A DNA stretch of 3,487 nucleotides from the NCBI RefSeq assembly GCF_003334335.1, contig NZ_QOWQ01000084.1; one strand, 5' to 3'. Made by a program: the position numbers and the translations under genes. The stretch is from Escherichia coli. GTDB taxonomy: Bacteria; Pseudomonadota; Gammaproteobacteria; Enterobacterales; Enterobacteriaceae. How positions within the stretch are numbered: the stretch's first letter is position 1; each line of letters starts with the position of its first letter. This document shows positions 1-3,487 of this stretch, one piece after another. The notes beneath the pieces were generated by a model. It was not told the origin of the DNA, did not search any database, and was given only the letters and a program-made list of their open reading frames with translations.

Positions 1-977
1 GTCAGAAATATACGGCCGGCAAGGTGTGGAGCTGAGCCGTTCACTGCTGTCGGGCTGGGTGGATGCATGCTGCCGGCAGTTGTCTCCGCTGGAAGAGGCG
101 CTTCATGGCTATGTGCTGACTGACGGTAAGCTCCATGCTGATGACACGCCTATCCCGGTGCTGTTGCCAGGCAATAAGAAAACGAAGACCGGGCGGTTAT
201 GGACCTACGTTCGTGACGACCGTAACGCCGGGTCAACGCTGGCGCCGGCGGTGTGGTTCGCTTACAGCCCGGACAGAAAAGGCATCCATCCGCAGACCCA
301 TCTTGCGGGGTTCAGTGGTGTACTGCAGGCGGATGCATACGCCGGGTTCAACGAGCTGTACCGGGATGGCCGGATAACGGAAGCCGCCTGTTGGGCTCAC
401 GCCCGCCGTAAAATCCACGATGTGCACGTTCGCACCCCGTCAGCCCTGACGGAGGAAGCGCTGAAACGGATCGGCGAACTGTACGCCATCGAGGCAGAGA
501 TAAGGGGAATGACGGCGGAGCAGCGCCTTGCCGAACGTCAGTTGAAAACGAAACCGCTGCTGAAATCCCTGGAAAGCTGGCTGCGTGAAAAGATGAAAAC
601 CCTGTCGCGACACTCAGAACTGGCGAAAGCGTTCGCATACGCCCTGAACCAGTGGCCGGCGCTGACGTACTATGCAGATGATGGCTGGGCTGAGACGGAC
701 AATAACATCGCTGAAAATGCGTTGCGGATGGTCAGTCTGGGCCGCAAAAACTACCTGTTCTTCGGTTCGGATCATGGAGGAGAGCGGGGAGCGCTGCTGT
801 ACAGCCTGATCGGGACGTGCAAACTGAACGGAGTGGAGCCAGAAAGCTACCTCCGCTATGTCCTTGACGTCATAGCCGACTGGCCGATAAACCGGGTCGG
901 CGAACTGCTCCCCTGGCGCGTAGCACTGCCGACTGAATAACACATCCCCGTCAATACGGTTCTTGCTGCACGCTTAC
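1..977 (+). mobile_element. IS66-family insertion sequence, right (3') end; inferred terminus near 977
   Basis: Transposase gene ends at 940. The minus-strand reading of 962-977 is 5'-GTAAGCGTGCAGCAAG, and IS66-family ends are recalled to begin 5'-GTAAGCG. The flanking minus-strand gene appears interrupted exactly here. The boundary is inferred and could be off by a few bp. Confidence 0.65.
2..940 (+). CDS. IS66-family transposase, C-terminal portion (5' end outside the window)
   Basis: Reading frame is open from position 2 with no upstream stop, so the gene is truncated by the window edge; stop TAA at 938-940. The C-terminal sequence ...[52 protein letters not shown]...ELLPW matches the conserved C-terminal signature I recall for IS66-family transposases. 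The ORF track's GTG at 26 is probably not the real start. Confidence 0.88.
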
Positions 978-1164
978 CCTTCTGTTGCTCACTCAGGGCA
1001 TGTAAATCATGCTCAAACCACGCCCCCTGAGCATCTGTCTGCAGAATCAACCGGCCATGACAGGAAAGGCAGAAACAATGCCGGATATTTCTGCTGAGCG
1101 CAGAGTCGGCACTGATAATGTGCTCACCCGGCGTGATCCCCAGCCCCGTTTTTATACCGTTCAT
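978..1164 (-). pseudogene. N-terminal fragment (~62 codons) of a second zinc-ribbon protein, paralogous to the 1161-1544 gene, apparently disrupted by the IS66 insertion
   Basis: ATG at 1164-1162 overlaps the TGA of the upstream gene (ATGA coupling). The product MNGIKTGLGITPGEHIISADSALSRNIRHCFCLSCHGRLILQTDAQGAWFEHDLHALSEQQK shares a C-x2-C-(14-15 residues)-WFEH motif with the upstream protein. The computed ORF (856-1164) continues into IS66 sequence, which is taken to be a fortuitous read-through. Confidence 0.45.
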
Positions 1165-1544
1165 TCTGCTACCCCCTCCTCACTGAAACGCCCGGTCTGG
1201 CAGTGTGTGCAGTACTGCTCCCCATAATAATCGTGGTGACATTGCCTGCAGTACCAGCTGGCTTTACGTACCACGGGTAAGGCATCCGGGACGAATTGCT
1301 GCAGACGTTTAATCAACCGTATTTCTCTGCGTTCCGGCCTGACATAAGGACATTGCTGCGCGTGCTCCGTCAGCCCGTCGTCAGTGTGTTCAAACCAGGG
1401 CCGTTCGGTGTCGTATTGCGGGTGGTATCTGAGTGCACTGCCGCAAAGGTGGCAGGTGTAGTGGGCATAAGGAGCAGTCTGTGCGGTACGGGCACCGATC
1501 AGACGTCCGTTGCCATCAAGTGCGAGAAAAGATTTTGCGTACAT
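1161..1544 (-). CDS. Small double zinc-ribbon protein (127 aa) with CoiA-N-terminal-like CxxC...WFEH motif
   Basis: ATG at 1544 with GAGGA about 10 nt upstream on the minus strand. N-terminal module YAKSFLALDGNGRLIGA...CHLCGSALRYHPQYDTERPWFEH resembles the N-terminal zinc ribbon of CoiA-like proteins (CPxC...HFAH). C-terminal module CRQCHHDYYGEQYCTHC is a second CxxC-x9-CxxC knuckle pair. No nuclease domain is present. Confidence 0.6.
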   Translation of the reverse strand: MYAKSFLALDGNGRLIGARTAQTAPYAHYTCHLCGSALRYHPQYDTERPWFEHTDDGLTEHAQQCPYVRPERREIRLIKRLQQFVPDALPVVRKASWYCRQCHHDYYGEQYCTHCQTGRFSEEGVAE

Positions 1545-1710: not shown

Positions 1711-2280
1711 TCAGCCACGACTGCAGCCAAAATTGCGCTCACCGGTGCCGTAAGCTTTGGTACTCTCCTTCGCCAGATAGTCAGCACGCTCCAGCACCTG
1801 CTGAAAGCCGGTGTCATCATCGCGTTCCAGCCACACCGCCGGCCTGACCGGAAAATGTGCCAGCGTGTCATAACGTCCGGCATCCACTCCCAGGGCACTG
1901 CACCACGCCTGTTTAATCATCCCGGCCAGTGATCCCGGAGCGCGGTAATCGCCGGCACGACACCAGGTATCCCGGTTGACCAGCAGCATCAGGTGATAGT
2001 GTTTTTTACCTTTGCACTCCCCAAACTCCCGGGCCCAGACGTAATGCAGGGTTGTGGGATGCACGCGTTTACCTTCCCGATGCTTACGTTTCTGGTAAGC
2101 GTCGATTCGGGCTTTCAGGGCATTGATGAAGCGGGATATCACAGCTGCGTCCGTTGCTGCCGGTACATCCGGGAGACGCAGGTCAACCCGCAATGCCGTC
2201 AGGCGGGGATGAACATTCAGTGCGTGCCGCACCGTCTCACGAATACGTTGCTGCCAGAAGGGGTTGTATTTGTAGGTCAT
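1711..2280 (-). CDS. HUH-motif rolling-circle Rep-like protein, YagK/YfjJ (Inovirus Gp2-like) family (189 aa)
   Basis: ATG at 2280 preceded by GGAGAT (revcomp of 2287-2292); stop TGA at 1711-1713. Product starts MTYKYNPFWQQRIRETVRHALNVHPRLTALRVDLRLPD, as I recall for YagK/YfjJ cryptic-prophage proteins. It contains HYHLMLL (HUH motif 2) and ADYLAKESTKAY (YxxK-type motif 3). The track's extension to 2316 lacks an ATG or RBS and covers the hairpin, so 2280 is the preferred start. Confidence 0.7.
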   Translation of the reverse strand: MTYKYNPFWQQRIRETVRHALNVHPRLTALRVDLRLPDVPAATDAAVISRFINALKARIDAYQKRKHREGKRVHPTTLHYVWAREFGECKGKKHYHLMLLVNRDTWCRAGDYRAPGSLAGMIKQAWCSALGVDAGRYDTLAHFPVRPAVWLERDDDTGFQQVLERADYLAKESTKAYGTGERNFGCSRG

Positions 2281-2481: not shown

Positions 2482-2676
2482 GTGATATGCAAAAAGAAGT
2501 GCAGGGACTGTGGTAACGCAATTACTCATAATACAGTATGTTGCCCGTATTGTGGCGCTGTCGACCCCTTCGGTTATTACCGGAAGACCGATCGTCTGCT
2601 CTGTTTACTGACGTTACTGCTGCTGCTGATTCTGGTTACCGTTTCAGGCGTCAGTGTATTTGTACTGTTGCAGTAG
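2482..2676 (+). CDS. Small zinc-ribbon protein with C-terminal transmembrane helix (64 aa, GTG start)
   Basis: GTG at 2482 lies 5 nt after GGAGAGGGAG (2467-2476). Product MICKKKCRDCGNAITHNTVCCPYCGAVDPFGYYRKTDRLLCLLTLLLLLILVTVSGVSVFVLLQ has a CxxC-x10-CPYC zinc ribbon followed by a roughly 25-residue hydrophobic segment. Stop TAG at 2674-2676. The track's TTG at 2413 coincides with the predicted -35 box and is unlikely to be the start. Confidence 0.5.
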   Translation: MICKKKCRDCGNAITHNTVCCPYCGAVDPFGYYRKTDRLLCLLTLLLLLILVTVSGVSVFVLLQ

Positions 2677-2829: not shown

Positions 2830-3220
2830 TCAGCCCCGACAAATACGAGTCCCCTTCAGAAGATACAGGCCGGTAATGCCTGAACGCCTGCCCCTCTGTA
2901 CACCATTCCCTTTTGATTTCGAATTCTTTGTTGCCGTTATACTGCTTAATGTTCCCGATCTTCCGGTGCACAGATAACACCGGAGTCATCGTAGCGCGGA
3001 TTCAAGATTCAGGTGACATATTTCCAGACGGAAGCCGGCACGCGATCGTAAAGTTTGTTCATTGTCAGTTCTGCCAGCCGGTGATCGACCGCAGAGTTAA
3101 AGGCTTCCAGCTCCGCAGGGGTAAGTTTATAACGTGTGTGGGAAATCACTTTTTCCAGCGTCTCCCGGGATGAACAACGACGGAACTGCTCTGGTTTTAA
3201 CTTCCATTCGTCTCTCGTTA

Positions 3221-3487
<267 letters not shown>

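Follow-up and report, generated by a model that had tools for sequence, protein, structure and literature searches.

A translationally coupled pair of zinc-ribbon paralogues in an Escherichia coli genomic island, one of them truncated at the end of an IS66-family element

The window, by which we mean the whole stretch of 3,487 nucleotides that was analysed, comes from an E. coli genomic island of the tyrosine-integrase type, and strain G1/2 (NZ_CP060083.1) matches it across all 3487 bases with 99.9% identity. Its main features are collected in Table 1. The minus strand carries, in the order of transcription, a YagK/YfjJ gene of the 'inovirus Gp2 family', an intact gene termed gene A here, and a second gene, gene B, which starts within the end of gene A and runs up to an IS66-family element. 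The product of the YagK/YfjJ gene also matches Pfam REP_ORF2-G2P (E 5e-5), and PGAP annotates a CDS at its counterpart in one of the genomes that carry the corresponding region (L001, 5734-6303). In the PHROGs collection this Gp2-like gene matches a PHROG of unknown function and, weakly, a replication initiator, while the same search of genes A and B returned nothing informative. No RNA family was found in the window by Rfam at an E-value of 0.1 or better, and scans of positions 900-2500 revealed no promoter-like site and a single terminator-like hairpin, which is not above chance expectation.

The remainder of the window holds a number of smaller elements. A small ORF in divergent orientation (2482-2676, plus strand) encodes a CxxC..CxxC arrangement followed by a hydrophobic C-terminal helix, and its product looks like a membrane-anchored zinc-ribbon protein judging by these features; it is annotated as hypothetical only and matches PHROG 38187, of unknown function (E 1e-5). 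Positions 3009-3188 (minus strand) correspond to a remnant of hha (hemolysin expression modulator), which PGAP marks in the matching genomes as missing its N-terminus, and which is intact in other variants of the island (L007). Finally, positions 3411-3487 are the start of an IS3-family element (TGTAGTGGCACACTAAATTTGGCC...). Strains G1/2 and EC2 have this element; Nissle 1917 and NMBU-W12E19 lack it, their homology to the window ending at 3411. This junction and that of the IS66-family element mean that the window is bounded by two different IS junctions.

Table 1. Features of the gene A/gene B locus, with positions numbered from the first nucleotide of the window
Feature	Position	Strand	Evidence
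IS66-family element, right-hand part: 3' part of tnpC and right end of the element	1..977	+	ORF 26..940; PGAP; plasmid copies
Right terminal inverted repeat of the IS (..ATACGGTTCTTGCTGCACGCTTAC)	954..977	+	Repeat comparison; homology to the intact alleles starts at 978
Chimeric 102-aa ORF: 62 native codons and 40 codons of antisense IS end	856..1164	-	ORF list; alignment with the intact allele
Gene B remnant (pseudogene), codons 1-62 of a 141-aa DUF7828 + Zn_ribbon_11 protein	978..1164	-	Pfam; intact alleles; PGAP
ATGA stop/start overlap of genes A and B	1161..1164	-	TCAT in the window, reverse complement ATGA
Gene A, intact, 127 aa, DUF7828 + Zn_ribbon_11	1161..1544	-	PGAP 'putative zinc ribbon protein', WP_016232313.1
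YagK/YfjJ ('inovirus Gp2 family') gene, upstream, first in the conserved module	1711..2280	-	Pfam YagK_YfjJ_C, E 4.9e-48

Genes A and B are translationally coupled paralogues. The stop codon of gene A overlaps the start codon of gene B in an ATGA, as the original prediction had it, and this overlap is kept in three intact alleles of the locus (L005-L007); the gene B ATG is preceded, at a distance of 10 nt, by the Shine-Dalgarno sequence AGGAGG. The prediction had further regarded gene B as a tandem paralogue on account of a C-x2-C-(14)-WFEH motif repeated in both products. The CxxC and WFEH elements are indeed present in the two proteins, but the spacing of 14 is found in neither, the spacer being 15 residues long in gene A (from C31) and 13 in gene B (from C32). 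The paralogy itself holds well beyond the motif: gene A (DUF7828, E 2.3e-31; Zn_ribbon_11, E 6.3e-8) and the intact allele of gene B (E 2.8e-22 and 3.8e-15, respectively) match the same two Pfam domains in the same order, and the two products align over their full length, with 29% identity between the intact 141-aa gene B product and gene A (E 9e-13). Even the 62-aa fragment of the window finds gene A by BLASTP (E 5e-5), and, as judged from these alignments, the likeness is one of true homology, beyond chance.

The two genes belong to a family defined by DUF7828 (PF25165) and Zn_ribbon_11 (PF11682, formerly DUF3279), for which NCBI uses the name 'putative zinc ribbon protein'. In an alignment of 39 family sequences, C32, C35, F50, H52 and C95 are invariant, and C65, W93, C98, G104, C108 and C111 are at least 90% conserved. 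This pattern of conservation points to a CCHC site together with a CCCC ribbon, whose residues would be putative metal ligands. The members are small proteins (genes A and B each encode ~130 aa in intact form) with two likely metal sites and no enzymatic domain. An AF2 model (pLDDT 86) predicts short beta-hairpin modules and helices, and a Foldseek search against AFDB50 retrieved family members only, with all matches that name an organism coming from Enterobacterales. The family is also small in number, a profile search of 1.84 billion representative proteins yielding 255 clusters at 50% identity with an E-value of 0.001 or better. A literature search for DUF7828, Zn_ribbon_11, PF11682 and DUF3279 found nothing, and NCBIfam holds no family for any of the five proteins searched. 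Neither genes A and B (the latter in its intact form) nor the Gp2-like gene and the small ORF matched any model in PADLOC-DB; an identity as anti-phage defence genes was rejected.

Two known types of protein resemble the family in part. RPB9/TFIIS-type double zinc-ribbon proteins likewise consist of two zinc-ribbon-like modules joined by a linker. A search of the PDB with a single protein sequence gave no match, and the family profile produced only marginal matches to RPB9 or ribosomal zinc ribbons; in the RPB9 match (E 0.0056), H52 is aligned to a Cys of the second C-x2-C pair of RPB9. The competence nuclease CoiA is described with a small putative zinc finger towards the N-terminus (bioRxiv 10.1101/2024.02.06.579203), and its CoiA_N domain (PF25164) shares with the family a C-x2-C followed by an aromatic-x-H motif. 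None of the 39 members matches CoiA_N at an E-value of 0.001 or better, and nine do so at 0.1 or better, all of them below threshold (best 1.3e-3). Unlike CoiA, moreover, the family lacks a PD-(D/E)XK nuclease domain and lies among island genes rather than competence genes. Both likenesses are resemblances between zinc-binding modules and not evidence of family membership. Many members carry in UniProt/AFDB such misnomers as 'DNA-directed RNA polymerase, beta subunit/140 kD subunit', 'Competence protein' or 'Ybl85', names that rest on generic zinc-ribbon similarity alone.

The window copy of gene B has neither the terminal part of DUF7828 nor any of Zn_ribbon_11. The expected native stretch of about 62 codons is there (978-1164 comprises 187 nt, that is, 62 codons and 1 nt), and by itself it gives a partial match to DUF7828 (E 3.3e-16) over model positions 2-62 of 87. 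As the fragment reaches no further than position 62, the truncation falls inside the domain. Uninterrupted alleles, which had been named as the comparison to make, are found in other E. coli genomes and encode 141 aa rather than 62; strain 2014C-3097 is an example with an intact pair. Over the 5' part that these alleles have in common with the window, the DNA is 91-98% identical, and no allele ending at codon 62 was found among the intact ones. The alignment with the closest of these (L005) is near-perfect from 978 on, the sequence before 978 being unrelated, so that homology breaks exactly at 977/978, where the IS66 terminus had been placed. The loss amounts to the last 79 codons, including the conserved Cys65 and the entire C-terminal CxxC..CxxC ribbon: C32, C35, F50 and H52 are retained, C65 would lie beyond the IS junction and is absent, and the C-x2-C-x9-C-x2-C of Zn_ribbon_11, a feature of gene A and of the intact allele alike, is missing from this copy. 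Gene A, for its part, retains all the conserved residues of the C-x2-C ... F-x-H ... C arrangement (the putative CCHC site). Gene B is an ordinary, IS-generated pseudogene and one already annotated: RefSeq/PGAP marks the exact remnant as incomplete and missing its C-terminus, under the name 'putative zinc ribbon protein' or 'DUF7828 domain-containing protein' (L001-L004).

The reading frame of the remnant continues into the IS, and the resulting chimeric ORF could still be translated. The same fused ORF is present in the protein database as cluster P0081, with one residue different from the version of the window. Expression of this product and a newly gained role for it, for instance as a dominant-negative partner of gene A, would account for the persistence of the junction in 13% of the genomes surveyed; the start codon, the Shine-Dalgarno sequence and the coupling to an intact gene A are all kept, and the junction is widespread. 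A neutral remnant in a vertically inherited island would persist equally well, however, and from the product one of the conserved putative ligands and all of the second ribbon are missing, its tail being fortuitous antisense IS sequence. We regard a functional chimera as very improbable. Fusions of other kinds were also seen in the family: the proteins P0047, P0057, P0066, P0073 and P0077 are mosaics of three E. coli paralogue types, and in one mosaic protein the IS-derived junction residues 'GKRAAR' are followed by the C-terminus of another paralogue. Such mosaics are products either of recombination between paralogues or of assembly artefacts.

The element itself is readily placed. The tnpC stop codon lies at 938-940, PGAP reports an 'IS66 family transposase' at the corresponding place in L001-L004, and plasmid copies of IS66 (H43-H45) match positions 1-977 of the window exactly. 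In the identical element of L001, L002 and L004, tnpA and tnpB lie upstream of tnpC according to PGAP. The right terminal repeat ends at 977 (..GCACGCTTAC / ..TTGCTGCACGCTTAC; reverse complement GTAAGCGTGCAGCAAGAAC), and its left counterpart, GTAAGCGTACAGCCTGAACCGT (GTAAGCGTACAGCC...), lies outside the window at L001 2559-2582, with 4 mismatches in 24 between the two. The element resembles members of the IS66 family (ISEc8/ISEc22/ISEc23 group) in the homology of tnpC, in the tnpA-tnpB-tnpC order of the full L001 copy, and in terminal inverted repeats that start with GTAAGCG (right end at 977, left end at L001 2559). IS66-family elements normally generate 8-bp duplications. This copy differs in that it has no 8-bp target-site duplication and that its flanks come from two different loci, which leaves its IS66 membership unaffected and shows that a rearrangement took place later.

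The duplication had been predicted for the other end of the element. With that end lying outside the window, the left flank was read in the near-identical genomes L001, L002 and L004, where the left repeat is preceded by AAATATCC, as against CCTTCTGT next to the right repeat; this part of the prediction did not hold. To the left of the IS lies an 89-nt fragment of the type I restriction gene hsdR, followed by a second IS66-family element, while Nissle 1917, which also carries the junction, shows the IS joined to a further truncated IS66 tnpC. The fate of the missing part of gene B was followed with probes against 5426 complete E. coli genomes. The IS/gene B junction was detected in 706 of them (13%), the uninterrupted site in 1329, the 5' part of gene B in 1906 and the 3' part in 1508. 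At least about 400 genomes possess the 5' part but no 3' part anywhere, which means that in these the 3' part has been lost by deletion rather than moved elsewhere.

A simple insertion of IS66 would have left the rest of gene B intact beyond the element, with an 8-bp duplication, and precise excision could then restore the gene. Such an origin is what the usual behaviour of IS66-family elements and the clean right junction at the terminal repeat would lead one to expect; yet the unequal flanking octamers, the hsdR fragment with the second IS66 element on the left, the fused tnpC of Nissle 1917, and the absence of the 3' part from so many genomes that hold the 5' part all speak against it. Simple insertion is ruled out for the genomes examined, and we consider it very improbable overall. 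Also very improbable is a natural gene end near 978, by which the 62-102 aa product would be a normal short DUF7828-only paralogue with the IS merely downstream, as a distant relative (L015) with a natural 105-aa DUF7828-only gene ahead of a full-length one might suggest: the intact alleles, 91-98% identical in DNA over the shared part, run on for 79 more codons and rule it out, the fragment stops inside the domain and ahead of Cys65, and the last 40 codons of the ORF are antisense IS sequence.

The loss of the 3' part is hence best attributed to an IS66-associated rearrangement rather than to a simple insertion, given the flanks from different loci and the missing target-site duplication. Such a rearrangement would have proceeded by recombination between two IS66 copies or by an adjacent deletion. 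The sharing of the junction by 706 genomes indicates that the event is old and has been inherited vertically or with the island, and the most economical reading is that of a single event, inherited thereafter with the island. The structural reading as a whole, comprising a coupled paralogue pair, a 5' remnant of gene B and an IS66-associated rearrangement, is one in which we place high confidence. The 89-nt hsdR fragment, an orphan trapped between two IS66-family elements (L001 2470-2558), is evidence of repeated IS66-mediated rearrangement in the island.

Six distant relatives of the family with usable gene context were compared (P0139, P0206, P0184, P0145, P0134 and P0179). In all six, the family gene comes after a Phage_AlpA gene of the same orientation, and in five a gene matching YagK_YfjJ_C lies just upstream of alpA, the match being faint in P0206; at the sixth locus (L015) the upstream position is taken by a 196-aa ORF without a Pfam match. 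The loci with enough flanking sequence are islands with tyrosine integrase or DUF932, antirestriction and GTPase genes. Five of the six have a single family gene and the sixth, L015, a pair. In the latter, a 105-aa DUF7828-only gene and a full DUF7828 + Zn_ribbon_11 gene overlap in tandem (3693-4465), from which it follows that tandem duplication recurs in the family and that ribbon-less versions occur naturally. The E. coli island differs in gene order from the distant relatives in that its zinc-ribbon genes and its Gp2-like gene have no AlpA between them. According to one proposal (bioRxiv 10.1101/2024.08.29.610337), AlpA and proteins resembling inovirus Gp2 supply core functions in islands of the tyrosine-integrase type.

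From this context, the sole pointer to function, it is possible that the family proteins are zinc-dependent accessory factors of a YagK/YfjJ-AlpA excision/replication module, with the A/B pair possibly acting together. They could be zinc-dependent binders of nucleic acid or protein, in a module that would control excision or replication of the island, and the coupled A and B products might form a heteromer. More speculative still is the broader proposal that they constitute the third component of a conserved AlpA module, with the YagK/YfjJ gene (a Gp2-like Rep) usually upstream, which would control excision, replication or mobilisation in many of the tyrosine-integrase islands of Enterobacterales, and that duplicated A/B pairs would work as a heteromer. 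As to the earlier suggestion that the system may be inactivated in this strain, it may or may not be so: gene A is intact, and a single family gene is what five of the six distant relatives possess.

The remnant is in itself of little weight, being a routine IS-generated pseudogene that RefSeq has already flagged. The junction, shared by 706 of 5426 complete E. coli genomes, is usable as a lineage or island marker, and a modest by-product of the analysis is a small family consistently linked with AlpA and YagK/YfjJ genes in integrase islands, elements about whose excision, replication and phage-mediated transfer much is still to be learned. Should the family proteins prove to be a component of the AlpA module, the IS66 truncation would mark the functional decay and immobilisation of the island in approximately 13% of E. 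coli genomes.
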